Below are positions 7,558-53,825 of a stretch of 64,000 nt of DNA, in pieces (within the stretch, counting starts at the first letter, position 1; each line of letters starts with the position of its first letter). The stretch lies in NCBI GenBank assembly GCA_000004985.1, contig GG738865.1; one strand, 5' to 3'. This DNA comes from Naegleria gruberi (Eukaryota). A program made the translations under genes and the position numbers. Under the pieces are notes generated by a model. The model worked only from the letters and a program-made list of their open reading frames with translations, had not been told where the DNA came from and searched no databases.

Positions 7558-7603
7558 TTTTTTAAACTTAACGGCTTAATATTTTTTAATGGGTTACAAT
7601 TTC

Positions 7604-12071: not shown

Positions 12072-12143
12072 CTCCCATGCCGGGAATTGAACCCGGACCT
12101 CCTGGGTGAAAGCCAGGTATCCTAGCCATTGGACTACACGGGA
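12072..12143 (-). tRNA. tRNA-Glu (anticodon TTC)
   Basis: Minus read TCCCGTG-TA-GTCC-AATGGCTA-GGAT-A-CCTGG-CTTTCAC-CCAGG-AGGT-CCGGG-TTCAATT-CCCGG-CATGGGA-G. Typical eukaryotic Glu tRNA. Confidence 0.85.
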
Positions 12144-12209
12144 ATCTTGTTCATAATAATAGTATTACAAATTTGATAATTCATAATCATAGAAACTTTA
12201 TTGTTTTTT

Positions 12210-12479: not shown

Positions 12480-12690
12480 TACTTGTTGTTGTTTCACTTC
12501 CTTCAATAACAGAATTTCAATCCAACTCTCAATAAACAGAATTTTCTTCTCCAATAAAACTCCCTTTTACGATGGTTCATGGTATTGTATTGCAATTTCT
12601 TCTTTTTTATTTAGAGAGAAGAAAGCATCAAATCTAATTCCATAAGACATTTTTTTTTTGTAAACTTTATTGAAAGATTTACTTTCACTA

Positions 12691-15600
12691 TTATTGTAAT
12701 AGGGCTCCCAATAGACCAACTGTAACCAATTTGCTTAATCTAGCAGCTGCGAGTTTATACTTGAGTTCGAATGGTTTTCTTGAAAGAGCTGCTTTGAAAC
12801 TCTGGTAACTTTCGACATATTCTCCCAATTTCTCTTCACACAAACCTAAAGTATACAATAATTCGGCATTTGTGGGATCTTTCATGAGGAGAAGGGAGGT
12901 AACAAGCTTTCCCTCAGTCCATTCCTCATTTTGGATTAAGAGTTCAACTAATAGTGCAGAATTGGATTGATCACTTTTCAAGTTGAAGGCAATTCGAGCA
13001 TGATGGAGAGCCTTCACATACCTATCAGTAAGTTTATAGGCCATTGCTAAGTAATATTGACATAGTTCAGAATTAGAGTCAATATTATTGGCTCTTTCCA
13101 AATATGGAATGGCAGCTGTTGGATTCTTATGTTTGAGATAGATTATTCCCAACAATTCACAAGCTTCATGACAGAAGGCATTACACTCTCGCAAAATCTT
13201 TTCACACACTTCTTTGGAAGTTTTAGCATTTCCAATCTTTTCCTCACATCTAGCTTTCATAATCAGTGCCTTTTCACAGAGTGGATATTTACGAAGGGCC
13301 TTGTCTAAATGTTGAACGGCTTCTTGGAAATCATTGACTATCATGTTGATTCCAGCAGCTGCAAGATCAGCCTCAAATTTCTCATCCAAAATTTCCAATT
13401 TGGCAAATTTGTGATTTTTGTGAGATGAAGTGTTCTTTTTTTGGTAACAAGAATTGCAGAGATCATAATTTGGACAATCGAGGCACTTCCAACGAATTCC
13501 TGTAAAATCACTTTGTTTACATCCATCACAAATGATATTTTCATGTTTGATTCTTGAAGAAGTATTCGAATTGGAAAGTAAAGGTGGTGATTGGGTCAAT
13601 CTTGGTTCTTGTGGTGGGTTGTTTTGTTGAGGTTTTTGGGTAGTGGATTGTGGAGGATTCTTAATTCTCAAATAAGTTTCGAATGTAGTTGGTTGAACCA
13701 TCTTTCGAATATCTGATTCACTCAAAGATTGGGAACAAGTCATACACCTGATTACAGTGCTTGAATTCATCTTGGAGATGGAATCTTCCATGTAAAATTC
13801 TAAACAATCCCTACAGACTGAATTGTTACAGGAGCAATTACTGAAACCTTTCGAATAACAAGTCGAATCTTTGCACTTGTTGCATTTTGAACATTTTGTA
13901 GTATTGTCACAAATCTTTAAAACTTCTTCTGGAGTAATTCTATCTTTTGGTTCATACAAAACCATCTTTGTGATCAATTCAATCAATCGTTTCGAATACA
14001 CTCCAGTTCGATTCCTAATCTTTTCCTGAATTCTTTCGAATAGTTTCGTTTCTTCTCTATTCGTTTCTGCAATAGTTCCAATATCAGTACTCATATTTAA
14101 CGACAATATTCTAAATAGAGTAGTACCAAATGCAAACATATCACTCGCATACGAATAGTCCTTTGATCCTTGTGTCAATAATTCTGGAGCAATATATCCC
14201 AAAGTTCCTGAACAGTTGGTTTTTGTGTGTGTTCTCATATTTTCTAATTCTTTAGCCAAGCCAAAATCGCTCAACACATAAATTTTTCCTTCTGTTCCAT
14301 CTTTTTGGAGGAAATTCTCTGGCTTAATGTCTCGATGGACTACCTTATTTTGTTTAAGGTATTCTAAGGCGAGTGCACCTTGTTTGATGAATCTCCAGAC
14401 TTCAGTTTCGGGGAGCTGTGTTCCTTGGTTCATGAGTTTGAGTAAATCACCCAGGGGAAAGTATTCCATAACCATATATAGATATGTTGGATCATTGTTG
14501 ATACGGGCATATTCAATTTTGACTATATTGGGATGAGAAAGGGAATTAGCCCTCATGGCTTCTTGTAATGCTTGATTGAGTGTTGATTCATCACTTGATT
14601 TGCTAGAATTGAGAATAACCTTTACAACTTTAGTTTTTCCATTATCAGAAACTTTGAATACGAACGAAAATCCTCCTTCTCCCAAACAAGCTACATTTTG
14701 AAACTTTTGCTGTAAACTCCTCTCAACAATACTACAAAACTCTTCTTCACTAACTTTCAACTGAGCTTTCTTTGCTTCTGGATGGACTAAACCATCAGAA
14801 ACACCATTTTTGGAAAAACTTGGCCTAAACTGAGCTCCAACATTAATAGAACTTCTGGCTCCTGTGACAATGGCTCTCATCCTTCTCTTACCAGATTCAA
14901 CCGTATTTAAATACTTGAACATTAAGCCAACACTATCATCATCTGAAATCTTATACCAAGCTCCATCTTCCAAATATTTCAAATCAAAATTGTCGCATTT
15001 GATCTTTGATTTGATTCGTTTGGTGAGATCAGAGAAGGTATCCAATTCTTTGAGAAATATTTTGTGGATATTTTCCTCTTTGGTGGATGATTGGGAAGAG
15101 AGAGTTTCCTCTAAAATAATGTTTAGTTCTGTGCCTTGAGTGGATGAAGTGCTACTTGGCAATGAAGTGCTGGATGTTGAGTTTTGACTGATAGAGATGG
15201 AAGAAATACTGCTTCTAGAAGATGATTTCTCAATGGCATGAATAATTCTATTGGACTTGTCCAGAGTTTCGTAAAATTCCATCATTGATTCGAATGATAC
15301 CTTGTTGAGGGTAAGTTTATCCTCCAATTCGAAATAGCTAATTTCAAACTCAGCATTTGGTAATTCTGCATACTTTCTAACCAATTTCATCAAATCTTCA
15401 TAACCTTCACCTGATTTCAAACTTGATGAAAATTTCAACAAATTTTCATTTGATTTCAATTGAATTTCAAGTTTGAATTCAAACTTTTTAGGTTGTAAAT
15501 CCATTTGAAAGGAGGCACTTGTAGTGAATGATCCAATTCTTGAAAATGAATTCATTGATTGTGTAGGAGAAATCAGTTTCGGCACTTCTTTCGGATAGGA

Positions 15601-28198: not shown

Positions 28199-30403
28199 TT
28201 ACTTTCGACTGTTTAATGAAATTATTTCTGCTTCCTTCATAAACTCTACGTCGTTTCTTAATGATTCATCGGCATATTCAAGTGCTTGTAGTCCATATGT
28301 TTTAACTGCCTCCATAACAACTTCTCTGTCTTTTCTTAATGATTCATCTGCAAATTCAAGTGCCCATCCATGTTGCTGAACTGCTTCCATTACAACTTGT
28401 CTATCTTTTTTCAATTCATTATCTGCATATTTAAGTGCTCGACCATGCATGTTAATTGCTATCATTACAAGCTCTCTATCTTTCCTCAGTGCTTCACCTG
28501 CAAATTCAAATGCCCATACATCATGTTGAACTGCTCGCAGTACAATTTCTCTATCATTTCTAAATGATTCATCGGCAAATTCAAGTGCTCGTCCCTGTAT
28601 TACAACTGCCTCTAAAACAAATTCTTTGTCTTGTTTCAATGATTCATCAGCAAATTCAAGAGCCAAACCATGTGATTTAATCGCTGCCATTACAATTCCT
28701 CTATCTTTTTTCAGTAGTGTATCTGCAAACTCGAGTGCCCATCCATTTTGTTGAACTGCCTCCAAAATCACTTCTCTGTCTTTTCTTAATGATATATCTG
28801 CATGTTTAAGTATTTGCCATTGAATCTTAATTAATTCCATTACAAGTTTTCTGTCTTTTCTGAGGGATTCATCTGCAAATTCAAATGCATGATCATTTTG
28901 TGCTACTTTTAGAATAAAGTCTCTATCTTTTCTTAATGATTCGTCTGCAAATTTAAATGCTTGTCCATGGATTTTAATTGCTTCAAATACAATTTCTCTA
29001 TCTTTTCTTAGTGATTCGTCTACATATTGAAGCGCCCATCCATTTTGCTTAACAGCTTCCATTACTATTTCTTTATCTTTTCTTAATGATTCATCTGCAA
29101 ATTCAAGTTTCAATCCCTTTCGTTTAACTGTCTCTATTACAACCTGTCTATCTTTTCTAAGTGATTCATCTGCAAATGCCAACAGACCATGTTCTATAAT
29201 AAAAGCCCTGCTACTACTTGGTATGGTGAGCGCTTTATCAAGATGAAAAGTTAATTCACAAAATTCCGCAGCTATTATATCATTTTTCCAAATATCATAT
29301 TTACGATTCCTAAACAAAATATAATTAAATATAAAATAATAGAATCCATCTTCCCTCTCTTGAGGATTACTCGATGTAAATCGATCAAGCATTTGAGTCA
29401 AGTCAAAATTTTCAAATACTGAATTCGAAACATCATTGTTCTGATTATTATCGAGCAGTTTTTGGAAGGTTTTTCCCAATGAATAAATATCAGAGTGGAA
29501 TGTTGGTTTAAAATCCGGACCATTCTTGAATCTATTTTGACCATCCTCAAATATCAATAATTCAGGTGCACAGTATTTAGTTGTTCCACCCAATGATACA
29601 ATTCCCATTTGATTGGCCAATGTTTCATTATGTATAGATAATCCAAAATCACATATAGCTACTTCTGCCAAATAGGTATCATTTAATTTCTTAATCAGAA
29701 TATTTGCTGGCTTTATATCAGAATGTACCATTCCATTCTGTCTCATTAAGGCCAATACTTCACAACATTGATATAGTATTAATACCATTTGTTGATGATT
29801 GAATTTAACTGTCTTGTTATCTAATAAATATTGTAAACTTCCAAATGGTAAATATTCCATTTCAATGCAGCAAATATTTCTAATAAGCATGATGTTAAAT
29901 ATTTTAATAACATTAGGATGTTTCAAATTGATAGCATTAAAAGCTTCACTCAATCCCATTGTTGAATTGGGAATAATCTTCATTGCTCTAATAGTTTCCA
30001 CTTGTTTAGTTTTTTGATTTCTCTTAGTTACCTTTAAAACAGTTCCAAATCCTCCATTTCCAATCCTTTCAGCATGCCACACCTTTTCATAATCATCAAT
30101 TTCATCATTATTCGATCCAATTTTTTCAGGCTTACCATTTAAATACTTATTAAAGTAGCCAATCACTAAATTCACACAACCCTCTGCAAATTGATCTGTA
30201 ACCTGTTGTTCATTATTCAATTTTAACAAGTGTAGAAAGTGTTCCATAATTTTAATATTATTTTCACCTTTAATACAGTGTGATGCAATGGATTGATTGA
30301 CAAATAACAAGTCTTCGTAGAATTGACTTGTTTTTTGATATTTAAAGGCTTGTTCCGTTGTATCGTCATCATAAATGTCAGCAGTCAGTTGACTTCTTTT
30401 CAT
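28199..30403 (-). CDS. Protein kinase (non-RD: HSDIKPANIL) with 13 C-terminal DUF4116-type tandem repeats, 734 aa
   Basis: GNGGFGTVLKV, AMKII, HPNVIKI, HSDIKPANILI, CDFGLS, GTTKYCAPELL, then 13 repeats of about 25 aa of the form (F/Y)ADESLRKDREIVxEAVKQxGxAL. Confidence 0.85.
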   Translation of the reverse strand: MKRSQLTADIYDDDTTEQAFKYQKTSQFYEDLLFVNQSIASHCIKGENNIKIMEHFLHLLKLNNEQQVTDQFAEGCVNLVIGYFNKYLNGKPEKIGSNNDEIDDYEKVWHAERIGNGGFGTVLKVTKRNQKTKQVETIRAMKIIPNSTMGLSEAFNAINLKHPNVIKIFNIMLIRNICCIEMEYLPFGSLQYLLDNKTVKFNHQQMVLILYQCCEVLALMRQNGMVHSDIKPANILIKKLNDTYLAEVAICDFGLSIHNETLANQMGIVSLGGTTKYCAPELLIFEDGQNRFKNGPDFKPTFHSDIYSLGKTFQKLLDNNQNNDVSNSVFENFDLTQMLDRFTSSNPQEREDGFYYFIFNYILFRNRKYDIWKNDIIAAEFCELTFHLDKALTIPSSSRAFIIEHGLLAFADESLRKDRQVVIETVKRKGLKLEFADESLRKDKEIVMEAVKQNGWALQYVDESLRKDREIVFEAIKIHGQAFKFADESLRKDRDFILKVAQNDHAFEFADESLRKDRKLVMELIKIQWQILKHADISLRKDREVILEAVQQNGWALEFADTLLKKDRGIVMAAIKSHGLALEFADESLKQDKEFVLEAVVIQGRALEFADESFRNDREIVLRAVQHDVWAFEFAGEALRKDRELVMIAINMHGRALKYADNELKKDRQVVMEAVQQHGWALEFADESLRKDREVVMEAVKTYGLQALEYADESLRNDVEFMKEAEIISLNSRK
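28235..29210 (-). repeat. Coding tandem repeat: 13 copies of about 75 bp (25-aa DUF4116-like unit EFADESLRKDREVVMEAVKQNGWAL)
   Basis: Periodic protein repeat visible in translation of 28199..30403. Coding, not CRISPR. Confidence 0.7.
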
Positions 30404-31329: not shown

Positions 31330-32279
31330 TCATTTCCCTGGTATGCTCATCACTGAAATTACTTGGCAACCCTTAACGAATAGCAAGGGAAATTCCCTCT
31401 CCTTCTCAACAAGACATCTCACTCTTCTCTTTCTGTTACGACTATTCTTCTTCTTTGTGGTAGTGGTGGTGGTGGTGGTGGATGGAATCATTATTCCTCT
31501 TTCCCTATCCAATGTCTTTTGTTTTTTAAATCTAATTTCCAATTCCTTGTAATTTTCCTTCACATCTAATAGTATCTGTGATGATGATAACAAGTGTTAA
31601 TAATTTAATATTAATAATTAAATATAATTTAAAGATAACTTACCATATTGAAAAACTTATCAAAACCAGATAATACTCCTTCTAACTTGCTGTGTCCATG
31701 TCTAGTTTTAACCATGACACCAACTCTCTTCTTCTCCATCACTGCCTGATATAACAAACCGAATGAATGTTGGGAAGAGGATACAGATGCTTGGCCATAC
31801 TTGTGTTCTAGAAAACCTCTGTATGTATCCTTATGGGCCAATGTTGGCAAATCCTTCACATCTGGAAGGTTAGATTTAACAATGGACTCATCACTCGATT
31901 GCTTCTGTTCTGATGATGACAAAGATGATGAAGATGAACTGCCGGCTGCAACAATTTGATCATCACGATCCACCACAACACAAGATTCCTTCTTCTCTTC
32001 CTTGTTGATCTGTTGTTTCTGCTTTTGCTGTTTTGGCTTGTTCTTCAACAATAATTGATCTAAATTAATTGCATCAAATGTCTTGTATGGCTTGATATTA
32101 GATATTGGTGGGATCATCACATCATCATCAGCATCAGTAACACTGTTATTATTATTATTCTTATCAACAGATCCAAACAGTGCTATCAGTGGATCAAAAT
32201 CTTCCCTCAGAAACACATTCTTTCTCTCACTCATTTCCATCAAATTCAATACAATATTAACGAAAAGCGTATACTCCAA
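31330..32279 (-). CDS. Sm-like (LSm) domain protein, 2 exons (32279..31644, 31575..31330; intron GTAAGT..CACAG 68 nt), with about 190-aa N-terminal extension and a 55-aa Thr8/basic insert between the Sm1 and Sm2 motifs
   Basis: Sm1: LLYQAVMEKKRVGVMVKTRHGHSKLEGVLSGFDKFFNM|ILLDVKEN across the intron. Sm2-like LLFVKGCQVISV near the C-terminus. TTTTTTTT encoded by (ACC)8. Confidence 0.55.
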
Positions 32280-32598: not shown

Positions 32599-35500
32599 TT
32601 ATTGAAGGAAGGAAGATAATTTGTTTTGGAGTTGGTTAGTGAAATATTCCTTCATTTTGGATAATGGAGAAAAGATTTTGGATACAATTGACTTGGATTT
32701 GCTGGAGATCATGATCATGGTTGAAGTTGGACTAGATTGCCACAAGAGACCGTAAGCAAATATTCTGAAAACTAATCCAAAACTGAGAGCGACCAGGACT
32801 AGATAGAGAATGTGATCACTTTGGTAACTGTATAGAGATAGACTCTTTACAATATTGTAATCCTCTTCATAGTTGATAATTTCACCAATGTAGAGCAATT
32901 CTCTGACATAACGAGCATGAGAAAGAAGTGGAAACATTGGAAGTGGTTGTGGCATTTCATTCAAATCGGTCAATGTTGGAGTTCCTCCACAAAACATGTA
33001 AGACAGAAAGATTATGGTTGCACATGTAATTTGTCTCAGTTGTGGACTCACTGTAATTGAAACACAGTAAGCTATTGGAAAGGTAACATAGCTCAATAAG
33101 AACATGCTTCCAAAATAGAAACCAAAACTTGCTCTAGGTGAAATGATAAAGTAAAAAGTCAAGGAAAAGAAGAAGGAAACAATGAGAACTTGCAAGTTGG
33201 CTAACAGATCCTTGACCAGAAAGTACATGATAGAATTGATACCATTCAAAGTTTCTCTGATATAATTTGCCTTTTCGTTACCAAAGACTCTCAATGAAGA
33301 CATGGCAGCTGTCAAACTACATCCAAATATTAATAAACTTGCTAGGGCTATCACGTAATCCTTTTGAGGAAGTGCACAAATTGCAATCTTATCAGTTGGA
33401 CATTGATAGACTATACTCTTATCTACAGGTCCTTGATACAAATCACCAGACTGATTCAGGAATAACAATCCCAATAGAAAACCAGCAAGTATACTCAAAA
33501 CAGCATCAAAGATAATACTCATCCAACTTCTGGCCATTTGGATAATGGATCTAATCATTAATGCAATGAATTGTTTGTAAAATGGAGAGACATCTTTGGA
33601 GTGACGAGATTTTCCTCCTTCCTTATTATTTTCCCTTTCAGTTTGCTGAGATGGAATAAGGGAAGGGGTTGATGACAACTCCTCAGCAATTGAATCAATT
33701 CTTAATTGTAATTGATTCAATTCTTCATGAGTAGCTCCAGAAACAAAATCTAAAATTTCATCTGCATTGGCACCTCTCTTGATTTTGAGAATCTTTCCAA
33801 CTTCCCTACATATCACCTCACGCTTACCTCTCAAAACAACTTGTTTAGTCTTGAAAACCATGACATCTGTAAAGAGACAGAAAGTTTCATAGGCAGGTTG
33901 ATGGATAACACAAATGACTGTTTTTCCTCCATCTGCAATTTCCTTGAGGATTTTACAAGTTTTGTTTGCTGTCAAATAATCAAGACCCTACGAATATAAA
34001 ACGATTGATATTGATGAATTTACCAAAAATAGAAAATTGATTAATATAATTAGGAAAATCAAAAAAAAACATACAGTTGTAGGTTCGTCCAAAATAAGAA
34101 CTGCTGGTTGAGTAACCAATTCAATTCCTACATTCACTCTCTTCTTTTCACCACCTGAAATTCCTCTATGCTCTTCATTTCCAATAATTGTATTCGAAGC
34201 ATCATAACCTTCCTTAATAAGCTTCAAATCTCTCAAAACCTTATCCACAACCTTTCTATGTCCATCCATATCCAAATAATCATTCCTAACAAAAGAATTA
34301 AACATGAGTGTCTCTCTTGGAGTCAGAGTATGAATCATTATATCCTGTTGTGGCACAAATCCAATTAATCTCTTTTGGGAATCGGATTTTAATTGCTTCT
34401 TGCCAATATAAACTTTCCCGCCCATTTTACCACGTGCTCTTCTACTCAGAGTGTTGATGAAAGTTGTTTTGCCACTTCCAGATTCTCCTAGAATTGCAGT
34501 GAAGGTGAATGGATGGAATTCGCCACTGCTTTCGTATAGATGAGTGTTACCTGAGAAATCTTTGAAATTCAACTTTTCGTAAGTGATTTTGGCTCCTGTT
34601 TGAGAAGTTTTGGTTTCAGATACGGATTCTTCTAGTTTCTTTGAAGGTTTCTTTAACAAATTAATGGTAATCTTTCGAATAAATAATGGAAGAAATGTGG
34701 AGATTTCACCAGAATATAAAACTCTTTGAATTCTCATGGAAATTGACAAAGTGGCAATCAAGCAGAAAATCAAAATCAAGACGAAACCAATCATGAGCCA
34801 AGTAACTTCACTCATGGAACTTTCTACATAGTAGGAACCACTGATAGTGAATGGGAAACTTGTAGAATTACTTTCTATATAATCTTCTAATGAGGATTCG
34901 GATATTGTTGTCAAGTAATCATATCCTACATAATTAGAACTATTCGAAAGTGTTTCAACTGAGTAAAAGTTGACTTGAAATAAAATTCTCACACCATAAT
35001 TTCCCTTTTCTTCAATTTCTGTTGAATTATCAACAACAGATAACGCAAATTGTTTAAAACCATATTTAGTATTAGAAGTAATCCAATAATTGACCGAATA
35101 TGGATCTAAATAATAAGAAGAGTTGTAGCTCTCAAAGGAAGATAACTCTTTAAAGTAGTAAATGTTGAATGTTGTTGGAGAATAGTAAAATAAAGTCAAC
35201 TTGTCCAAATTTTCAAAAGTTTCACTTGTAGAGTTAATGGAAATGATCTTTTGGGAGAAACATGTCTTGACGAGAGTTGAGTTGAGAGTTGGGTGCTTGT
35301 AAACGAAACCATTGTCAGTGTTGCATGTACTCGAAAATTCTTCATTGAAATAGACGAATTCTGACGAAACTCTTCCGATACTGTAGTAAGAATAATAGAT
35401 GGTTCCACTCAATATCAACATGTAAATGAAAATGAAGAGTGAAATTAACATGCAAGTGATACCATTCTTCAAAATGGATTTCCTTTCTTTCGAAGCATTT

Positions 35501-35847
35501 GTTGAGTGAGGTTTCGTATTTGGTTGATGAGTCGTAGATTGAATATCATCATATTCAGATACAATATCCAGTTGAATAGCTTCATCAAATGACGACTGAC
35601 TATCAGAATTTGCACTCACATGTGTTATTGTTGAACTCTTCACCTTCTTATTTGATTCTCTTGGAGTTTCCATTGGTTTCTCCGATCCATTTTCATCATC
35701 TTGCACCTCTTCAATAGAAATTTCATATTCTACTGAGACCTGTTGTTGACTTGCTGTTCCAAGAGTGGACATGTTTTTTTTGATTTGTAAACTAATTGCA
35801 TCAGTTTCGTATATCATTCTTTTAACCCAACAGTCAAGAAACAACAT
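32599..35847 (-). CDS. ABC transporter, ABCG-like half transporter (NBD-TMD) with extra N-terminal TM-ectodomain-TM module; 2 exons (35847..34075, 33987..32599; intron GTATGT..TCGTAG 87 nt)
   Basis: Walker A LGESGSGKTT, signature ISGGEKKRVNVGIE, Walker B VLILDEPTT|GLD split by the intron, six C-terminal TM helices (ABC2 type). N-terminal region has two TM helices flanking an about 200-aa NxS/T-rich segment. Confidence 0.8.
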
Positions 35848-36024
35848 TGAAAGTTCTAATGCAATGTTTTAATCAGTGAATTTTCTACATACCGTTGTGG
35901 TAGAATCTTCCATCAGAACACATTCAAAAACTTGTTTGTTGCGTGACGGAACATTTTCAGCTTTTTGAAATATGAACTTGGATCACAAAAATGGATCGTA
36001 CTACCAAGTTTGGAACATTTGCTG

Positions 36025-36037
36025 TTTTGGCGCCAAC
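36025..36037. promoter_or_regulatory. Palindromic E2F-like element TTTTGGCGCCAAC in the shared 420-bp bidirectional promoter of the ABC transporter pair
   Basis: TTGGCGCCAA is a perfect 10-bp palindrome. Matches the high-affinity E2F palindrome TTTSGCGCSAAA. Confidence 0.35.
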
Positions 36038-36299
36038 AATTTTCACTGAATATTCGAGTTCTTGGTAAGCAACTGCTTATCACACAATCTTCTTGTCATA
36101 CGTTGAACGGTAAATAGTTCATCATCAAAGTTTCGAATAAGTTTTCCCAACACAAAGTAACTTTCAAAGAAACTTTCAACAAAAAAATGTCAAACAACAA
36201 CTCTCAAACACTCTTTCGTCTTGGCCTTCTTCCACAGAATTATCCACTCAGTGGAATGCCTTCTGTGTGGTGCCAATTTCAATCTTGATTTTATGTTTC

Positions 36300-39200
36300 G
36301 TCATGTTGACGAGTTCATTAGTTTTTGGCTTTAGAAATATGATTCAATTTCCAAAACAACAAAAGAAGAGAAAGGAATTGAATAGAAAGGCGACTGTTGG
36401 TAATTTGAATAGTGATAAAGGTGATATGAGAAATGTTAGTGCTAATTCGTTTGTATTCGAAAGTGAAATGATTAGTTTGGGAAGAGAAGAGCAAGAACCT
36501 AATACTTTTGAACAATTGGGATCTATCGGATTGAATATTTTGAAAAAGACTGAAGAAAAACCAAGTACCACCTCATCAATTAATCAACCAATTCAGGTTG
36601 AAATTAGTAGAAACCTTTCGTCTTCCTCTGTGATGAATTCTTCAATGAAAAATCTCAAGACCATCAATACTACACCAGTTAGTTCACCTAATTTTTGGTC
36701 TCTCTACACTCCTCTTATCATTCTAATCACAATTTTATTAATTCTCTCCTTAATTTGCATCTGTATTGTAACAGCAATTTCAATTTACCAAGTTGACTAT
36801 TTAACACAAAATATTCAAACATTTAATTTAGACAATTCACATCCTGAATGGACAAACACAAGAACCATGACTGAATCTTACGGATCCACCAAGACATACA
36901 CTGAAACTCTTATCCAATTGACTTCATCTCAACAATCCAAAGCTCTCTATGGGTTGTACTCTGCCAATTCAACACTCCGCATTCTCCTCTTCAAGAATCA
37001 AAGCTTATATGATGAGTTTGATACATCCAACTCTATTAATTACTACTCTTCTGATGTAAAGGAGATTAACAAGACGAAACAGGGTGTTATTTTGAATTCA
37101 TGGAAATTGTGGAATGGAAATTCAGATTCAAGCTCACAACAAACATTTCATTTGTTAATTCAGGTGGAGAATTCATCATCTGCTTATGAAGCAATATTCC
37201 ACTTGATTGTTGAGGATGAAAACTATTCAAATGCTTCAAACTTTTTAGTTTTTGTGTGGATTTTAATTTTGGAAATTTTAGTGTGTTTGATAGTTTCGAA
37301 TCAAATTTACTTGTCAATGATTTCTTACGATCCAACCAATAAGCAACTTTTCATTAGTGAGTGGACATCTCCTTTTACATTTTTCTCGTGTAAGAAAGAA
37401 TCAGAAAGTGAAATTTCATCAAAGAAAGATGTTACAATAGAATTTAAGAATTTGAGTTTTCACAGTTTTGAGGGAAAACGAATTTTGAATAATATTTCAG
37501 GAAGAATTGAATCAGGAAAGTTGACAGCCGTGATGGGTTCAACAGGGAGTGGTAAATCAAGTTTCTTAACTGTGCTGAGTAAGAGAGCTCACTATGGAGT
37601 TCAAGAAGGAGAAATTAAACTAAATGGACGAATTCTTACAGAAAGTTTAAAGAAGGCCATTGGTTTTGTCCCTCAAGATGACATTATGATCTCAAGTTTA
37701 CAAATCTGGGAAACTCTTATGTTCAGTTCCATCTACCGATCCATGACATCATTATTCTTTCCCCTGTTTCGAAAGGTCAAAGAAACTGCCGAAATGTTAA
37801 ACATTCGCCACAAACTCTTCAGTACCATTGGTGATGTCAACAAGAAAGTCCTCAGTGGTGGAGAAAAGAAACGTCTCAATGTAGGCATTGAAATAATCAA
37901 CGAATGTCAGGTCCTCCTCCTCGACGAACCAACAAGTGGCCTGGACAGTAAGCAAGCTCTTTTGTTGTGTAAAATTCTGGCCCAGAAAACAAAGAATGAA
38001 GGGTTGAATGTTATTTGCGTGATTCATCAGCCATCTGCTGAGATTTATGAAATGTTTGATGATTTGATATTGTTTAGGAATGGTGAGATGATTGCTCATG
38101 GAGATGCCAAGCAGATTGCAAGTAAATGTGCGAAGGATATTTTGCAAATTTCAGATAATTTTGAAAAGCAAGACGAAAGTGAGGGAAAGGAGAGTGAGGA
38201 GTATAATAATCCTGGAGATTGTGTGATTGCTGCCATGGATATAATGACAGCAGAACAGCAACAGGAACTGATTAGGATTCAACCCTCCCTCAGTAAGTTT
38301 AAACTTGATAAGGGTGGATATCAAAATGAAATGTCAAATTTCATTCCTGTTCCAAATGTGCCATTCTACATTCAAGGATTGGCATTCTTATTCAGAGGAG
38401 TACTCCAAATCTTCCATGAATTCTCATCATTTGCCACTGATCTCCTCATTAACACAATTAGTGGAATTTTCATTGGCGCCATTTTTGTTGGAAGTTTAAA
38501 TTATAATGGTCAGAGTACTGAAGAAATTGCAAAGAAATGCCCAACTTATCTCTACTCGACATGTTCCCAGGCACAAGAGGATGATATTTCTGCATTTATT
38601 AGTATTTTGGTTCTTTCGATTAGTTTATCTTCAATACTGAGCTCTTTGAGTATTTTTGGAAGGGATAAGGTTGTGTTTCGTAGAGAATCTCAAAGTGGAC
38701 TCAATTCATTGGTTTACTTTTTGGTGAAGGATGTGATGGCATTTATTCCAATTAGTTTGGCTTCATTCTTTTTCACAATTTCTAGTTATTATTTGGCTAG
38801 TCCAAAAGGATCGCTGGTTGACTATTTTAAACTGAACTTTCTGATAACTGCCACAACTTATCCGATTGGATATATCATTTCCATAGCGATGAGGACTGAG
38901 ATCTCTCAGATCGCTTCTGGCTTAGTTGTGTTCGTTGTGTATTTATTCTCCGGTGTAACTCCAACTATTCCTGAAATAAGTAGTTTCTATTTTCCTTATT
39001 CCTGGCTTCCACACTTTTCCTTTTTGAGATATGCAAATGAGATATTATACTTGAATGAGTTGAAAAATTATTCATCCTACGGCAAGAGTGTTGAGTCGAA
39101 AGGTTACATTATGGAAATGATTGATGTGAATATGATGTTCATGGTTTCGTTTGCTTTCTTTTTCCATATTTTGGCAGCTGTTGTGTTGTGGCAATCTGTA

Positions 39201-39305
39201 CCTGGTTCTTATGTTAGCATTTGGACTAGTTTGATTAAGAGTAAGGTTACTTTATTCATTCAAACTATTAGAAATCTAAAAAACAAGACGAGCAAAAATT
39301 CCTAA
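36300..39305 (+). CDS. ABC transporter paralog (ABCG-like half transporter with the same N-terminal TM-ectodomain-TM module), single exon
   Basis: MGSTGSGKSSF (Walker A), LSGGEKKRLNVGIE, LLLDEPTSGLD, six C-terminal TM helices. N-terminal TM LIILITILLILSLICICIV, Asn-glycosylation-rich ectodomain, then TM FLVFVWILILEILVCLIV. Track ORF starts at a GTG (36267). First ATG is at 36300. Confidence 0.8.
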   Translation, partial: VMLTSSLVFGFRNMIQFPKQQKKRKELNRKATVGNLNSDKGDMRNVSANSFVFESEMISLGREEQEPNTFEQLGSIGLNILKKTEEKPSTTSSINQPIQVEISRNLSSSSVMNSSMKNLKTINTTPVSSPNFWSLYTPLIILITILLILSLICICIVTAISIYQVDYLTQNIQTFNLDNSHPEWTNTRTMTESYGSTKTYTETLIQLTSSQQSKALYGLYSANSTLRILLFKNQSLYDEFDTSNSINYYSSDVKEINKTKQGVILNSWKLWNGNSDSSSQQTFHLLIQVENSSSAYEAIFHLIVEDENYSNASNFLVFVWILILEILVCLIVSNQIYLSMISYDPTNKQLFISEWTSPFTFFSCKKESESEISSKKDVTIEFKNLSFHSFEGKRILNNISGRIESGKLTAVMGSTGSGKSSFLTVLSKRAHYGVQEGEIKLNGRILTESLKKAIGFVPQDDIMISSLQIWETLMFSSIYRSMTSLFFPLFRKVKETAEMLNIRHKLFSTIGDVNKKVLSGGEKKRLNVGIEIINECQVLLLDEPTSGLDSKQALLLCKILAQKTKNEGLNVICVIHQPSAEIYEMFDDLILFRNGEMIAHGDAKQIASKCAKDILQISDNFEKQDESEGKESEEYNNPGDCVIAAMDIMTAEQQQELIRIQPSLSKFKLDKGGYQNEMSNFIPVPNVPFYIQGLAFLFRGVLQIFHEFSSFATDLLINTISGIFIGAIFVGSLNYNGQSTEEIAKKCPTYLYSTCSQAQEDDISAFISILVLSISLSSILSSLSIFGRDKVVFRRESQSGLNSLVYFLVKDVMAFIPISLASFFFTISSYYLASPKGSLVDYFKLNFLITATTYPIGYIISIAMRTEISQIASGLVVFVVYLFSGVTPTIPEISSFYFPYSWLPHFSFLRYANEILYLNELKNYSSYGKSVESKGYIMEMIDVNMMFMVSFAFFFHILAAVVLWQSVPGSYVSIWTSLIKSKVTLFIQTIRNLKNKTSKNS

Positions 39306-39656
39306 TATAATGCAAAGATACCATACCACTAGTGTAATGTAATTATTAAACAATTATTATTATTATCTAATTGAGTAAAATCTTGGTTGTAGACTATCAG
39401 AAATAAACAAAATCAAACTGATGCAAATCTTGGCTTTCCAAAATGAGAATATTCATAAATACTTTTCTCTGACTCCCACTTTCCAAAAAAATCACCAATA
39501 GCAACTTTGATAATTGTAAATATCGGTTTGAGTCTTCAATGTCAGACAATTTTTTTCTTCTTCCTCATTATCCTCGGATCAGAATTGTCGTAATTTTTTG
39601 ATTTTCTTTGTGACTATTAAATAACAAACAATAAGCAGATACGTTCATGTAGGTTG

Positions 39657-39678
39657 GCGGGAAAAGTTTGGCGCCAAT
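39657..39678. promoter_or_regulatory. Composite GC element GGCGGGAAAAGTTTGGCGCCAAT (two E2F-like sites plus CCAAT), 40-60 bp upstream of ATG 39718
   Basis: GCGGGAAA and TTTGGCGC are both canonical E2F consensus variants. CCAAT box overlaps. Confidence 0.4.
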
Positions 39679-39717: not shown

Positions 39718-42548
39718 ATGTCTTTTGGGCGCTACAACCAAACCTACCAAGAAGAGGAGGAAGATAGAATTGGAGACGTGGAAGAGGAGGAAGCCGACGA
39801 AGAAGAAGAAGAGGAAGGAGGTTTTGGAAATCCATATGATGATACTTCATTTGAGGATACTAGTCATTCAAAGCAATCCCCTTCATCATCATCACAAAAT
39901 AATGCAAGAAGTGTCTACTCTCCAAGTGCTAGTTATAATAGTATCCCTAATCAGAGTTCAACATCGTTTAATGCCTCATCTTCAACAATGAATGGTTCGT
40001 TATTTACGAGTTCTCACACCAAATTGCCACCAGTCAATGGAGCAACACCAGCATCAACAACACCAACTAATTATCAAACCAATATCGATCTAAGAAATAG
40101 CAATGTTACTAACAAGGAGAATATTAACAATTCTTATGAAGCAACATCGGCTAGGAGTGATCGTTCTACTTACAAGCCATTTACTTATAATCCTCTTCCT
40201 TACCCAACTTCTGCCCACACCCCTTCCACAAATCAACCTCAATCTGTTCCCTACCCTTATGAACCACATGCCCCTCCATCCATTCACTCTGATAGATCTC
40301 TCAAGAGAAAGGAATCATCGGATGAATTATTTGAGGTGATGAATCATCACCACAATGATGTCAACAACACATCAACAGATTACTTTACAAATCGCCCAAG
40401 AAGTGCTGGGAGACCTTCATCTGCCTCTACGCGTCCTTCAAGTGCAGGCTCTACTAGGTCAAAAGTTAATCCCTCTCAATACAAGCTCTCACACATCCCA
40501 ACACCTAAGCAATTTCCAATTGCCTCTTCAAGAAGCACCAATAGTGTTTTAGAGAAGAATACACTCTCTAAAAAACAAGTTGTACAAAATTATTTATCTA
40601 CTGCAAACAAGAGTATGAAAAAGAGAACAATTCCTACCAACTTTTTCAAAGATCCAGAAGGAATGTATATGGATTTGCAAGAATTAAGACAAGAGGTCGC
40701 TATACTAAGAAGAGATAATCAATCACTAAGGACAGCTGCTCAAAAATCAGAAGCTGACAGTACTAGAAAACAAAAGCAAGTGGAGGAGCTACTGAGAGCT
40801 CATGCCCTTGTCGAAACTAAGGGAACAAGATATGAGAATCTTTTCAAGGAAGTCAATGTAAGTACAATATTAGAGACTCGAATTTAACTCGAAAATTATA
40901 GCTTGTGAAGAGCTTGAAATCAAGAATAAGAGAACTTGAAAAGAACCTAAGTGAAAAGGAAAATGAGTTCCAAAGAATTAAATTGGACAGTAGATACACC
41001 AGAGTGAGAGAATTGGAAACTGAATTAAAGGCATACTATACTGAATCAAGAAGACTTCAAAAGGTTGTGGAAGATTTGGAATTGGAAAAGCAGGAACTTG
41101 AAGTGATTGATGAGGAAAATGAAAAATTAAGTCGCCAAAACGTGAAACTAAGAGAACTAATTGTAAAAATGAAACAAGTTCAAGATTATTATAAGGAACA
41201 AAACGAGTCCATTTCTGAAGAGTTGAGATATGTGAGAGACAATAATGGTGCTTCATCTAGGTTATCAGCGCAAGAACATCAAATTGATGACATGTCCAGA
41301 ACGATACATGAACTCAATGAAAGGTTGTCAGAGTATGATCAACAATTGACAGATACAAAGAAAGCAAATGCAGAACTGCAAAGCATTAGTGATGGAATTC
41401 AATTTGATAACAACTCTCTGAGGAAAGAGAACAATGACATGAAAAAAGCAATCGAAGAACAAAAACAAAATTACGAAAGAAAACTCGCAGAAAAAGATAA
41501 TGCTATTACAGAGCTGGGCAAACAGCAGGAATCATATTCACATCTCAGATCGAGTGTGGTGACTGTAGAACAGAGAGTGACAGAGAAGGAGAAGGAATGT
41601 CAATTCCTTACTGCCACACTTAAGGAAAAGACCGATTTGTTAAGTGCCAAGAATCAAGAAATTCTAACACTAAGAAGCAAGATGGAAGGTGTTGAAGAGC
41701 AAAATAATACCCTCATGACCAAATTCAAAGACATGAAAACAATGAATCTCAAATTGTTGGATGAAGTGGCAAATTTACAAAACAAGCTTGCCAATTCAGC
41801 CATGAACACTCCTCCACCAGTGCCAATCCAACCTGTGCATAGCAGTGCTCACGAACAACCAGCCTATGAAGATGTTATTGATCCTGTTGATCTCGTTGAA
41901 TCACCAGAAATTAACTATTGCCCTCCAGAACCAATTGAGGAAGAGGAAGGACTACAACAACCTGAACAACATTCATCAGTCCCGCAAGTGGAACCATCAA
42001 ATGATACTCCAAACAATGTACAAGAGGTTGAAGAAGAAGAGGAACAACAACAAGACGATGACATTGGAGGAAATTACAGTTTTGAGGATGAGACAGAAGA
42101 TCAAGAAGAGTCAATTTACGATGCGGCAGCAACAAAGATTCAGAGATGTGCCAGAAGGTTCTTGGGAAGAAGAAGAAGGCAGAGAATAATATCAGATCGA
42201 GAGCAATTAAGACAAGAACAAGAACTTCAAGCACAACCAGAAGAATCAACGAATTATGAAGAAGAGCAACACCAACCTGTAACTGTTTTGGAAGAGTCCT
42301 ATCAAGAAGAACCGTCATTTGAAGAAGACCACCATGGTGGTGCAACATATGATGAGTTTGGAGGAATGGTTGACCATGACGAGCATGATTATTATGGAAC
42401 TGGTGATTCATTTGAAATGCAAGAAGATCAACACGAACCAATTAACTTTGATGACGATGATAGAAGCGAGGAACACAATTTCAATGATGATAACTTTGAT
42501 GACAATCACTACGATCATCACGATAGCTATGGTGATGATGAGTGGTAA
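39718..42548 (+). CDS. Coiled-coil protein with IQ motif and acidic termini, 2 exons (39718..40857, 40902..42548; intron GTAAGT..TTATAG 44 nt), about 929 aa
   Basis: Phase-0 join ...FKEVN|LVKSLKSRIRELEK. Extended heptad coiled coil. IQ-like AAATKIQRCARRFLGRRRRQRII. Ser-rich N-terminus and Asp/Glu/His-rich C-terminus. Confidence 0.7.
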
Positions 42549-50161: not shown

Positions 50162-53100
50162 TTATTGATTTTTATTGTCAAGCAAATGTTCTAGTTGGGA
50201 ACATGTTTCCTGCGCTTTTTGGGTTTCAATTTGATTTTGAGAAAGTTTGTCTTCAATTTGTTGCTTAACTTCTGGTGGAAGATTTGGATGCACTTGTTTG
50301 AGATATTTGGCTTTTACAGAGGCAAGTTGTTCAATCTTCTTTTGCCACTTTTCAATCTCCTTTTCTAATTGGAACTCATCTGGTAAAACAAGTTGAGTCA
50401 TTACTGTTCCTTGAGGAGTGGAGAATGCAGTTGCTGTAAGATAGAGTGTATGTTTGTGTTTCTTAGATTCTTCTTCAGTTATAAATTTGATTGAGGTGAA
50501 TTTGGTGAGGGTTTGAATAATCTTAATGTCATTCTCTGAAAGATTGAAAGCAGTTGTGGAAGATCCTTGATAGAAAATATAGGCAGTCAACTCGGATTTG
50601 GATGGTAATTGAAGATTTTGTTTCATAGATCTTAATTGTTGTACAATTTGGAGAATCTTGTCCATCTTTTCTGTAATTAGTTGTTTGGATGATCCAATTT
50701 CAAGAATTGAACCAATTTCATCAGCAGTGAATGAGGTTGGATAGGAACATTCCAAAATACTACTGGTTGGAATGTAGCTAGAGTTCTTATTAGACAACTT
50801 GGCATAGAGAGCATTGTTTTCTCCATTCAAAGGGCAACAATGATACAACTCTTCAGTTATGAATGGCATGTAAGGATGTAAGAGTTTTAAAACAGTAACT
50901 AAACAATAATTTAGGGTGTGGAGAGTATTTTCGATAAGTGGAGTCATTGTGTTAGAACTGTGGAGAATTGGCTTGACAATTTCTAGGTAATTATCACAGA
51001 ATTGATAGATGAAGAATTGATAAATAGAGGTACAACCATCACTAAACATAAAGTTATCAATGGAATTTCTGGTAACATCAATTGTTTCACTGAGATTGAG
51101 TAAAATCCATTGATTTTGAAGTACTTGTTGCGATTTTTCAAGACTTGCAAAGGATTTCAACAATAATTCAGACAAGTTTTCATCATTTCCTGGTACGCTA
51201 TAGTTGAATCTCTCAAAGTGGGATAAGCAAAATCTTGCAGATTGCCAAATCTTATTACACAAATGTCTATTGGATTGAGCACGCATAACATCCAAATTAA
51301 TTTGTCTTCCTTGTTGAGTGTATTGAATGAGAGTAAATCTGAGTGCATCAGTTCCACATTGAGGAATACCATTAGGGAATTCTTGTTGAACACCTTGTAA
51401 GGCTTTCTTCATTTCTTGTTTGGTAATGTTTGTATTCTTTTCAATGCCTCTCTTTAAATCTTCAAAGGTGGTTCCTTTTATCATATCAATAGGGTCAATT
51501 ACGTTACCAAGACTTTTAGACATCTTTCTGCCTTGTTTGTCTCTAACCATAGAGTGGAGGTAAATTTCATTGAAGGGTTTTTCCTTATTATCGGACAAGT
51601 AAGTGCAAAGCATGACCATTCTTGCAACCCAAAAGAAGAGAATGTCACTTCCTGTTTCCATGACAGAACTAGGATATCTGTAATCCAAGTCCTTGAGTAC
51701 ATTTTCACTTCTTGAAGGCCATCCAAAGGCTGCCAATGGATAAAGTCCAGATGAGAACCAAGTATCCAAAACGTCTTCATCTTGTTCCAATACAAAGTTA
51801 GAGAAATTTGGAACGTTCTTTTGAAGGATAGAAATGGCTTCTTCCTCCTTATGGGCTACAATCCAAATATTTTCAATGTTTGAAGAATTCTTATTGGAAT
51901 ATTCCATAATGAACGATTTTTCCTTTCTGAGTTCCTCCATTAAAGGTTCCAATTTGGAAAGGTCTCCAACCAATTTAAAGGCAGGAATTCTGTGACCCCA
52001 CCACAATTGTCTTGAAATACACCAATCATGAATATTTTCGAGCCAGTTATTCCATGTGGTCTTGTGATAGGATGGATGGATTAAAATTTCATTATTGTTG
52101 ACAAGGTCGAGGGCTTTCTTTGCCAAACTGTCACATTTAACAAACCACTGATTGAGTAACATTGGTTCGAGAATGTCCTTGGATCTTGAACAGATAGGGA
52201 GTTCCATTTCGTGATCTTGTTCAGAAATGAAAAGTTCCATATCTTTAAGTTTGTCTACTAACAATTTTCTAACAATAAATCTATTCTTACCAGAAAATTC
52301 TACTGGTACTTGATCATTCAAAGAACCATCCTTATTGAGAATGGTAATAAATTCCAAACCATGACGTTTTCCACATTCAAAATCTTCAAATGAATGAGCT
52401 GGGGTAATCTTAACAGCACCTGTACCAATTTCCATATTTACCAATTTTTCATCACAAATAATTGGTACAGCTCTCTTTGAATCGAATGGATGCAAAATGA
52501 ACTTGTTATGGAAGTTTTTGTATCTTTCATCTTCTGGATGAATGGCAACAGCAGTATCTCCAAGCATGGTTTCCAATCTTGTTGTACTGACATTAATGTA
52601 TCCAATAATTTCTGTACTACCAGGAGATGAAATAACTGGGTATTTAAAGGTGTGCATTACACCAAAGTCAAATGATTTTTCTTCACAACTTGGAACCATT
52701 ACTTTAGTCTTTTTCTTGAGTGAAATATATTCCACTTCAATATCCGAAATTGCTGTATTTAATTGAGGACACCAATTGACAAGTTTGGCATCTCTGTAAA
52801 TGAGACCATCCCTTGCTAATCTTACAAAACATTCAAGAACAGCACTTGAAAATTGAGCATCCATAGTAAAGACTTTTCTACTCCAATCAGTCATGGAACC
52901 CATAGCCTTCATTTGATTATCAATTCTATTGCCATACTCTTCCTTCCATGACCAAACTCTCTTTAAAAATTCCTCTCTTCCTAAATCGTGTCTGGTCTTT
53001 CCTTCCTCTTTAGCAATTTTCTTTTCCACAGCAACTTGTGTTGAAATACCAGCATGGTCAACACCAGGAACCCACAATACATTGTATCCATTCATCTTTT

Positions 53101-53479
53101 TATATCTACAAAGTGAGTCTTGAATAGAGGCAGTGAGAGCATGTCCAATGTGAAGACTTCCTGTCACATTAGGAGGTGGAAGTAAAATTGTATATTGTGG
53201 TTTTGTTGTTGAATCCTCTCCTTTGAATAATCCTTTTTCTTCCCACCATGAATACCAATCCTGTTCGACACGAGATGGATCAAATGATGAAGTGAGGATT
53301 CTATTCAATTTTGTTGTTGATGATTCCTCCGAAGAATTGGTTTCATCTTGTATGTTGTTATAGTGAAAATTTCTATATTGTTGTTGATGAACAGAAGAGA
53401 TTCCTAATTGTTTCATCAATCCAAATTTTTTGTTTTGATTATTTGGTGTGGCTTGTTTGATGGTAATCCTCTTTAGCAT
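50162..53479 (-). CDS. VARS: Valyl-tRNA synthetase, class I, 1105 aa, with basic presequence-like N-terminus (possible dual cytosolic/mitochondrial forms)
   Basis: PPPNVTGSLHIGHAL (HIGH), RKMSKSLGNVIDP (KMSKS), editing-domain and anticodon-binding regions, C-terminal coiled coil. Single exon. Confidence 0.9.
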   Translation of the reverse strand: MLKRITIKQATPNNQNKKFGLMKQLGISSVHQQQYRNFHYNNIQDETNSSEESSTTKLNRILTSSFDPSRVEQDWYSWWEEKGLFKGEDSTTKPQYTILLPPPNVTGSLHIGHALTASIQDSLCRYKKMNGYNVLWVPGVDHAGISTQVAVEKKIAKEEGKTRHDLGREEFLKRVWSWKEEYGNRIDNQMKAMGSMTDWSRKVFTMDAQFSSAVLECFVRLARDGLIYRDAKLVNWCPQLNTAISDIEVEYISLKKKTKVMVPSCEEKSFDFGVMHTFKYPVISSPGSTEIIGYINVSTTRLETMLGDTAVAIHPEDERYKNFHNKFILHPFDSKRAVPIICDEKLVNMEIGTGAVKITPAHSFEDFECGKRHGLEFITILNKDGSLNDQVPVEFSGKNRFIVRKLLVDKLKDMELFISEQDHEMELPICSRSKDILEPMLLNQWFVKCDSLAKKALDLVNNNEILIHPSYHKTTWNNWLENIHDWCISRQLWWGHRIPAFKLVGDLSKLEPLMEELRKEKSFIMEYSNKNSSNIENIWIVAHKEEEAISILQKNVPNFSNFVLEQDEDVLDTWFSSGLYPLAAFGWPSRSENVLKDLDYRYPSSVMETGSDILFFWVARMVMLCTYLSDNKEKPFNEIYLHSMVRDKQGRKMSKSLGNVIDPIDMIKGTTFEDLKRGIEKNTNITKQEMKKALQGVQQEFPNGIPQCGTDALRFTLIQYTQQGRQINLDVMRAQSNRHLCNKIWQSARFCLSHFERFNYSVPGNDENLSELLLKSFASLEKSQQVLQNQWILLNLSETIDVTRNSIDNFMFSDGCTSIYQFFIYQFCDNYLEIVKPILHSSNTMTPLIENTLHTLNYCLVTVLKLLHPYMPFITEELYHCCPLNGENNALYAKLSNKNSSYIPTSSILECSYPTSFTADEIGSILEIGSSKQLITEKMDKILQIVQQLRSMKQNLQLPSKSELTAYIFYQGSSTTAFNLSENDIKIIQTLTKFTSIKFITEEESKKHKHTLYLTATAFSTPQGTVMTQLVLPDEFQLEKEIEKWQKKIEQLASVKAKYLKQVHPNLPPEVKQQIEDKLSQNQIETQKAQETCSQLEHLLDNKNQ

Positions 53480-53811: not shown

Positions 53812-53825
53812 TTTTCCCGCCCAAT
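53812..53825. promoter_or_regulatory. TTTTCCCGCCCAAT: E2F-like site (TTTCCCGCC) fused to CCAAT box, 26-39 bp upstream of the dynein heavy chain ATG
   Basis: GC-rich island in AT-rich spacer. Reverse complement of the GGCGGGAAA motif seen at 39657 and 7604. Confidence 0.4.

Follow-up and report, generated by a model that had tools for sequence, protein, structure and literature searches.

A divergent pair of ABCG-type half transporters in Naegleria gruberi with a lineage-restricted N-terminal hairpin

Many ATP-binding cassette (ABC) half transporters of the ABCG type, for example ABCG2, act as homodimers, and in the ABCG5/ABCG8 couple one of the two ATP sites is degenerate. In ABCA exporters and in the bacterial MacB and LolCDE systems, an extracytosolic domain is situated between the first and the second transmembrane (TM) helices of the transport domain. 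The start codons of ABCG5 and ABCG8 are separated by a 374 bp intergenic promoter (PMC7961684). The present study deals with a stretch of 64,000 nucleotides from Naegleria gruberi (contig GG738865.1), hereafter the window, and with two genes located head to head within it, A on the minus strand and B on the plus strand. Both encode ABCG-type half transporters belonging to the PF19055 branch, with a hairpin of two hydrophobic helices and an intervening domain placed ahead of the nucleotide-binding domain (NBD). On balance, we lean towards the view that A and B are ATP-driven exporters whose lineage-specific hairpin displays a glycosylated beta-sandwich outside the cytosol, and that they probably work as an A/B heterodimer; the gene structures, the ABCG core, the hairpin, its restriction to one lineage and the conservation of the pairing are documented below, and the topology, the glycosylation, the partnership and the role of the ectodomain are what we infer in this view.

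Gene models and transporter core

Both genes originate from N. gruberi strain NEG-M and lie on a scaffold of 820,293 bp, which is AT-rich (GC-content about 0.30–0.38). Their public names are only “predicted protein”. The elements of gene A are as follows:
32599..35772, minus strand: gene A (NAEGRDRAFT_66992 / XP_002677782.1 / D2VDP5), 1028 amino acids (aa), delimited from open reading frames (ORFs), the splice site and an exact-sequence look-up
34075..35772, minus strand: exon 1
33988..34074, minus strand: intron of 87 nt, GTATGT...TAG
32599..33987, minus strand: exon 2, stop codon included
35407..35463, minus strand: TM1, predicted signal-anchor helix GITCMLISLFIFIYMLILS, aa 129–147; mean Kyte-Doolittle hydropathy 2.4; long helix in the AlphaFold2 (AF2) model
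34798..35406, minus strand: ectodomain of 203 aa, predicted beta-sandwich of seven strands and one helix, with six N-x-S/T sequons
34741..34797, minus strand: TM2 LMIGFVLILIFCLIATLSI, predicted to return the chain to the cytosol, aa 351–369; mean hydropathy 2.93; helix in the AF2 model
33811..34596, minus strand: NBD, split by the intron (Pfam ABC_tran, 2e-20)
32746..33573, minus strand: ABC-2 type membrane domain with six TM helices (PF01061, 5.5e-12; PF19055, 1.9e-15; phmmer matches to solved ABCG/PDR chains)

Translation from ATG 35772 with removal of the intron gives a product identical to the recorded 1028-aa protein XP_002677782.1, and an A-rich run lies ahead of this ATG, which is also the case for other start codons of the region. 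The strand and the two exons agree with the initial annotation of the window, but its start codon, located 25 codons further upstream at 35847, is not the right one; the exact look-up found no product of that start on record. The intron of gene A follows the codons for DEPTT and precedes those for GLD. In gene B of N. lovaniensis, a 117-nt intron is located two codons further on, between DEPTSGL and DS (L001, ~7362..7490), and N. gruberi B has no intron near the DEPT..GLD site. These positions suggest an old intron near this site that has since slid or been lost.

Gene B comprises the following elements:
36187..39305, plus strand: gene B; the public model (NAEGRDRAFT_48707 / XP_002677677.1 / D2VDP6) extends over 36303..39305 and encodes 1000 aa (exact look-up)
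35991..36157, plus strand: hypothetical alternative 5′ end from open-frame enumeration, consisting of an exon at 35991..36064 (MDRTTKFGTFAVLAPTIFTEYSSS) and a 93-nt intron GTAAGC...AAAG at 36065..36157
36258..36332, plus strand: TM0 AFCVVPISILILCFVMLTSSLVFGF, mostly upstream of the annotated start; low-confidence helix in the AF2 model
36714..36770, plus strand: TM1 LIILITILLILSLICICIV; mean hydropathy 3.5; AF2 helix 165–204 of the model
36771..37241, plus strand: ectodomain of 157 aa with the strand and helix order of A and six sequons, delimited by alignment with A; AF2 strands, pLDDT (predicted local distance difference test) of the block 65–85
37242..37298, plus strand: TM2 FLVFVWILILEILVCLIVS; mean hydropathy 2.98; AF2 helix 343–375 of the model
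37428..38105, plus strand: NBD (Pfam ABC_tran, 3.4e-23; AF2 pLDDT above 90)
38379..39179, plus strand: ABC-2 type membrane domain with six TM helices (PF19055, 5.5e-18; PF01061, 2.6e-11; target-normalised Foldseek TM-score 0.75–0.82)

The strand and the end of gene B are as given by the initial annotation, whereas its start at 36300 needs correction: the first in-frame ATG there is at 36303, and translation probably starts from ATG 36187. The B proteins of N. lovaniensis (assembled from L001) and N. fowleri (FDP41_011288) and the environmental proteins P0122 and P0121 all open with an extra N-terminal helix, TM0. In the window, TM0 lies in the frame of a long ORF that is open from 36158; it is followed by the invariant motif GFRNMIQFPK and by a Lys/Arg-rich stretch, KQQKKRK in the case of B. 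Open-frame enumeration found no in-frame ATG ahead of TM0 in the reference. An environmental Naegleria contig with 99% identity (run ERR1078381) contains one extra base between window positions 36204 and 36205 (CTCTACAAAC versus CTCT-CAAAC). The extra base brings ATG 36187 in frame and gives MSNNNSTNTLSYWPSSTELSTQWNAFCVVP...; the ORF of the environmental contig starts with MSNNNSTNTLSYWPSS... Judging from this comparison, the reference probably has a one-base error or a strain polymorphism at 36204/36205. The practical gain is that the public model of N. gruberi gene B, starting at 36303, probably lacks the conserved first helix owing to a single-base frame problem in the reference.

With the alternative spliced 5′ exon, the reference would regain an in-frame ATG, and a palindrome located in the intergenic spacer would become coding sequence. 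This model was ranked second because its donor site is deleted in the near-identical strain, in which ATG 36187 is in frame. With TM0 included, B most likely has nine helices following an out-in-out-in path. The eight-helix topology proposed initially is probably wrong for B, since the conserved TM0 lies upstream of the start codon assumed there.

The products of A and B are paralogues with 30% identity over 886 aa (BLASTP, E 3e-96). In both of them, ABC_tran precedes ABC2_membrane (PF01061) and ABC2_membrane_7 (PF19055), and all these Pfam matches are above the gathering scores. ABC_tran and ABC2_membrane occupy positions 441–591 and 730–958 in A, and 395–545 and 693–919 in B. The scores for PF19055 are 57.1 bits (A) and 65.5 bits (B) against a cut-off of 22.7, with only model positions ~213–405 covered. 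The set of ATPase motifs is complete in both proteins, including the Walker B Glu, with the columns at least 90% conserved in an alignment of 43 sequences. Walker A, Q-loop, signature, Walker B and H-loop read GESGSGKT, VPQQD, ISGGEKKR, LILDEPT and VIHQP in the translation of A and GSTGSGKS, VPQDD, LSGGEKKR, LLLDEPT and VIHQP in B. The best solved relatives found with phmmer were CDR1, Pdr5, ABCG25, G16, G2, G5, G1 and G8 (E from 3e-43 to 2e-27). The AF2 model of full-length B has a mean pLDDT of 75.4 and a predicted TM-score (pTM) of 0.72, with pLDDT above 90 over most of the NBD and the membrane domain, and Foldseek matched it to ABCG2, G16, G5/G8, G25 and G1 with target-normalised TM-scores of 0.75–0.82 (E ~1e-27). 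The domain order, motifs, phmmer relatives and structural matches bear out the first assignment of both proteins as ABCG-like half transporters with an NBD followed by a six-TM domain.

A conserved C-P-x(6-7)-C motif is found in the first extracellular loop of the membrane domain, namely in A (~33420..33470, YQCPTDKIAICALPQKD), in B (~38520..38570, KKCPTYLYSTCSQAQED) and in the Acrasis relative (KQCPEGMKELCRLPLDD). The motif may form a disulphide loop; it is not present in the Beta vulgaris relative.

The N-terminal hairpin and its distribution

The initial annotation described a TM helix, a sequon-dense segment of about 200 aa and a second TM helix ahead of each NBD. The hairpin is indeed common to both proteins: two strong hydrophobic segments of 19 residues precede each NBD, with mean hydropathies of 2.4–3.5. 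The segments are separated by 203 aa in A and by 157 aa in B. The two modules align at about 20% identity and have the motif L..FY.S...I.YFK..S.F..YN.S..LDP.S.NY in common. The AF2 layout is alike in A and B, with a long helix, seven strands and one short helix in matching order and another long helix, obtained in two independent runs. In the Naegleria and Willaertia proteins, the module follows 100–230 cytosolic residues and an internal anchor helix.

The segment between TM1 and TM2 is most likely extracytosolic, because TM helices border it on both sides and the NBD that follows has to be in the cytosol. In A, four Lys/Arg residues are found in the 15 aa preceding TM1 and one after it, while TM2 has none before and two after. 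The A-type proteins in general have 4–5 such residues before TM1, one after it, none before TM2 and 2–5 after it, which is a positive-inside pattern in all of them. Sequons occur in the flanked segment at 3.0–3.8 per 100 aa compared with 0.6–1.2 in the rest of the protein. Only the B proteins of N. lovaniensis and N. fowleri have significantly more of them than their composition would give (p 0.001). More informative is their placement: three sequon positions are kept in 6–7 of 10 family members across A-type, B-type and Willaertia proteins, with the paralogues being only about 20% identical. The extracellular location that had been presumed for this Asn-rich segment thus gains support from the flanking helices, the cytosolic NBD, the positive-inside rule in A and the conserved sequon positions.

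A number of results weigh against a glycosylated beta-sandwich of this kind. In the window proteins themselves, the sequon density equals that expected from their N/S/T-rich composition (shuffle p 0.23 for A and 0.20 for B). The AF2 model of the N-terminal module of A, built from an alignment of 10 sequences, is of only moderate confidence (mean pLDDT 69.8, pTM 0.56), and a Foldseek search of the PDB with the module model returned no match at E <= 1e-3. The Pfam scan of both full proteins and of 10 module sequences, up to E 10, yielded nothing credible for the module and no GOLD/EMP24 family, and the ectodomain profile gave only chance matches (E ~0.7–1) among PDB sequences. TMEM87A was the top non-significant Foldseek match, with capsid jelly rolls and carbohydrate-binding modules also among the best of these. 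Since none of the Foldseek, Pfam and PDB-sequence searches gave a significant link, the predicted ectodomain can be called a GOLD-like or jelly-roll beta-sandwich at the level of the fold only.

In order to assess the distribution of the module, the ectodomain profile was scored against 1.84 billion representative proteins. This produced 10 matches at E <= 1e-3, six of them at E <= 1e-10. Nine of the 10 belong to Naegleria, Willaertia or environmental contigs close to Naegleria proteins, and most of these contain ABC-transporter sequence as well. The remaining one, a repeat protein, is unrelated. The named matches are N. fowleri FDP41_011289 and FDP41_011288, N. gruberi NAEGRDRAFT_79337 and 66288, and Willaertia magna ABK040_006149. 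Word-indexed homologue searches had not picked up the entries for N. gruberi, N. fowleri and N. lovaniensis B, which were found with the exhaustive profile search and exact look-ups. In a neighbour-joining (NJ) tree of the transporter core, the module-bearing proteins make up a clade with 100% bootstrap support, divided into A and B sub-clades (100% each) with one copy per species; NAEGRDRAFT_79337 joins the A clade at 86%. At the sequence level, the module is confined to the Naegleria/Willaertia lineage, as the profile search and the core phylogeny indicate. The module had been called novel, which holds for its sequence, with no match in Pfam or the PDB, but not for the architecture, as PF19055 relatives also have hydrophobic segments ahead of the NBD and some of them a Cys-rich region. 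A literature search on the gene identifiers, Naegleria ABCG transporters and GOLD-ABC fusions found nothing relevant.

Divergent arrangement and shared spacer

The region between the two genes contains the following:
35773..36186: shared divergent spacer of 414 bp, from the annotated ATG of A to the probable ATG 36187 of B
36027..36036: palindrome TTGGCGCCAA, 255 bp from the ATG of A and 151 bp from ATG 36187
36026..36033: E2F-type core TTTGGCGC, a match to TTTSSCGC

The divergent orientation was recognised from the beginning. The spacer length of 420 bp quoted with it does not follow from the start codons used there, which give 452 bp; the probable and annotated starts give 414–530 bp, the upper value being the distance between the two annotated starts. 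In N. lovaniensis (L001), B is on the minus strand (9563..5991) and A on the plus strand (10001..13625), with a spacer of 437 bp. In N. fowleri (L005), A is on the minus strand (5501..1762) and B on the plus strand (6001..9486), with a spacer of 499 bp. A search for conserved promoter blocks in the spacers of N. gruberi and N. lovaniensis revealed one shared 11-mer (E 0.06), which was judged to be due to chance. The spacers no longer align, and it is thus the arrangement that is conserved.

As the divergent pair has been kept in three Naegleria species, A and B are most likely partners of each other. The heterodimer put forward initially is plausible, but both ATPase sites are canonical, so that nothing forces a heterodimer, and the homologue of Willaertia magna is a single gene with no ABC neighbour, so that the ancestral state was probably a homodimer. 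Both points tell against the partnership. The main rival explanation, which we hold to be on the unlikely side, is that A and B each form homodimers. The head-to-head layout would then be a relic of a tandem duplication with inversion, which shared chromatin or a shared promoter may have preserved, and not a sign of physical partnership. The unpaired Willaertia gene and the homodimeric state of many ABCG half transporters speak for it, and homodimers could function because the motifs from Walker A to the H-loop are fully canonical in both proteins. Against it stand the retention of the arrangement in N. gruberi, N. lovaniensis and N. fowleri in spite of spacers that no longer align, the strict one-to-one orthology of A and of B, and a second A-like/B-like couple in N. 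gruberi, which suggests that the pair duplicates as a unit. The A/B heterodimer is accordingly retained here as the preferred partnership.

The second couple (proteins P0126 and P0128) is a strongly diverged module pair on another N. gruberi scaffold, of 507,294 bp. It consists of NAEGRDRAFT_79337, an A-like protein of 920 aa with only ~12 residues before TM1, and of a B-like fragment of 302 aa, 66288. The two follow each other directly in UniProt (accessions D2VBP6 and D2VBP5), from which we infer that the genes are adjacent, accession order following gene order in the window.

The palindromic element in the spacer had been taken as E2F-like and as a sign of co-regulation. The motif is present, is plausibly of the E2F type and is over-represented. 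The exact 10-mer TTGGCGCCAA occurs twice in the window (at 36027 and 39668) compared with 0.02 copies expected, and TTTSSCGC has six sites where 1.38 are expected, a number reached in none of 100 shuffles; four of the six lie just upstream of start codons. Moreover, E2F, DP and pRb families have been reported across eukaryotic supergroups, including Excavata (PMC4862756). These observations would suit a functional E2F/DP-type site governing both genes from the shared spacer, which we nevertheless regard as unlikely. No match to TTSSCGCSAA, even with one mismatch, was found in the orthologous A/B spacers of N. lovaniensis and N. fowleri, and owing to this absence the palindrome gives no evidence for conserved co-regulation. 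Besides, a single site cannot show bidirectional control, and if B had the alternative spliced 5′ end, the palindrome would fall within coding sequence.

Similar sites are present elsewhere in the window. Two E2F-like sites are arranged in tandem at 39654..39677 (TTGGCGGGAAAA, GT, TTGGCGCCAA), 40–60 bp upstream of ATG 39718, which opens an ORF for a Ser-rich protein of 389 aa without any Pfam match. For the ORF after it (40905..42548), Pfam gives a weak coiled-coil match, TPR_MLP1_2. The orthologous position in N. lovaniensis has TTTTTGGAGCGAAAAA directly before the ATG. Another E2F-core site, TTTCCCGC (53813..53820), is located 38 bp upstream of ATG 53851, whose ORF contains DHC_N1, the N-terminal region of dynein heavy chain (1.6e-38). 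This site is also found in a divergent spacer, the other gene being that of a class I tRNA synthetase (53479..50162).

On the other side of the transporter pair, directly downstream of gene A, an ORF on the minus strand (31629..32279) ends in a weak LSM-domain match (E 3e-4) and is probably one exon of an Sm-like protein gene. Further away, NAEGRDRAFT_66990 (28199..30403, minus strand) encodes a protein kinase domain followed by 11 DUF4116 repeats (1.8e-150).

Origin of the hairpin, proposed function and known systems

Among the PF19055 relatives, the number of hydrophobic segments preceding the NBD ranges from one to seven; Naegleria A has two and B has three. A Beta vulgaris protein of 1095 aa has a signal-peptide-like start, 23 Cys before the NBD, a TM segment at 284–302 and Walker A at 526. 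The relative from Acrasis kona has 22 Cys and a TM segment at 203–221, and that from Amoebophrya has 10 Cys and one pre-NBD hydrophobic segment. These proteins raise the question of whether the Naegleria ectodomain could be a strongly diverged, Cys-depleted descendant of the Cys-rich N-terminal region of PF19055 transporters, with the signal peptide having become a signal anchor. The Cys-rich region has the matching place, ahead of the last pre-NBD helix, in Acrasis, Beta vulgaris and Amoebophrya, and Acrasis, also a heterolobosean, stands beside the Naegleria/Willaertia clade in the NJ tree. We consider such a descent improbable. The grouping with Acrasis has a bootstrap value of only 35%, the ectodomain profile retrieved no Cys-rich relative, and neither the profile search nor the Pfam scan detected sequence similarity between the N-terminal parts. 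The relatives in question (Acrasis, Beta vulgaris, P0012 and Amoebophrya) have 10–34 Cys before the NBD and CPxG-type repeats, in contrast to the 0–3 Cys of the Naegleria/Willaertia module.

It is highly improbable that the Asn/Ser/Thr-rich segment is cytosolic or membrane-peripheral, with hydrophobic flanks that are not true TM helices: composition alone explains the sequon density in the window proteins and few charged residues flank TM1 and TM2 of B, but the hydropathy of 2.4–3.5 over 19 residues, the long AF2 helices on both sides in two independent runs, the positive-inside pattern of all A-type proteins, the conserved sequon positions and the self-consistent out-in-out-in path given by KQQKKRK after TM0 of B all argue otherwise.

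In the favoured scheme, two half transporters, most likely A and B, would pair to make two ATP sites. Each chain would begin with a disordered cytosolic N-terminus and a signal-anchor helix, continue into 157–203 aa of a probably N-glycosylated GOLD/jelly-roll beta-sandwich and come back through a return helix. Two different beta-sandwiches would then sit above the extracytosolic exit of the translocation path, where they might accept the exported substrate, retain it or pass it along, or else interact with a partner or ligand. A more specific version can be imagined, in which A and B form an obligate heterodimer and the GOLD-like ectodomains build an extracytosolic acceptor chamber, in which lipid, sterol or lipid-anchored cargo is collected at the exit for onward transfer. 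Such a mechanism would amount to ectodomain-assisted export of the ABCA kind, evolved independently on an ABCG scaffold by means of a separate N-terminal hairpin. We give this more specific version little chance of being correct.

The locus bears on no long-standing open question. Should the favoured scheme be true, the N-terminus of this ABCG branch would be a hot spot for gaining membrane-anchored extracytosolic domains, and it would seem that the Naegleria/Willaertia lineage either invented a domain of this kind or substituted one for another, after which the transporter was divided between two genes whose pairing is conserved. The pair would also lend itself, as a small natural model, to studies of what ABCG-type export gains from an ectodomain. 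Since the pathogen N. fowleri carries the pair too, it would supply a genus-restricted, surface-exposed protein module.

In terms of gene arrangement, the A/B pair resembles ABCG5/ABCG8: in both cases half-transporter paralogues are transcribed divergently from a short spacer (374 bp for ABCG5/ABCG8, 414–530 bp here), and in Naegleria the arrangement is kept between species. The AF2 core of B superposes on the ABCG5 and ABCG8 chains with target-normalised TM-scores of 0.75–0.82. However, the Naegleria pair is not orthologous to ABCG5/G8, having arisen within Heterolobosea according to the NJ tree. The asymmetry of the ATP sites known from G5/G8 is not seen in Naegleria, with both NBDs being canonical, and ABCG5/G8 have neither an N-terminal hairpin nor an ectodomain.

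The tentative resemblance of the ectodomain to GOLD domains of the p24/TMED and TMEM87 types includes a membrane-tethered, extracytosolic position. The sequence identity is 6–9%, and the Naegleria domain differs in having an anchoring helix on either side. As capsids, carbohydrate-binding modules and SID1 contain jelly-roll sandwiches as well, the similarity to GOLD may be convergent.

With the ABCA, MacB and LolCDE systems, the comparison is one of analogy. ABCA/MacB/LolCDE-type ectodomains gave no sequence match and, in Foldseek against the PDB, no fold match to the Naegleria module. Similar to these systems, the Naegleria proteins would have a domain outside the cytosol that is fixed by two helices and situated above the membrane domain, with a possible hand-off of substrate. 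Unlike them, the Naegleria hairpin is a separate unit N-terminal to the NBD, which leaves the six-helix ABCG domain intact.

In architecture, the long PF19055 ABCGs of Beta vulgaris, Acrasis kona and Amoebophrya share with the Naegleria proteins a core of NBD followed by the membrane domain, a similar length and at least one hydrophobic segment before the NBD. Maize entries under the synonyms ABCG24/28 are mostly 1040–1112 aa long, in contrast to ~600–750 aa for most other half-size ABCGs in one table. The starts of the proteins differ: Naegleria has a cytosolic N-terminus and a signal anchor, Beta vulgaris a signal-peptide-like start, and the gene models of the other relatives contain no first helix. 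A Cys-rich region behind a cleavable signal peptide is absent from the Naegleria and Willaertia proteins. In addition, the Naegleria proteins cover only the C-terminal half of the PF19055 model (~213–405), whereas the Beta vulgaris protein spans it from end to end (positions 1–410, 1e-206). The Naegleria pair is a variant, at the level of the genus, of a transporter branch that is already known; it does not represent a system of a new kind.

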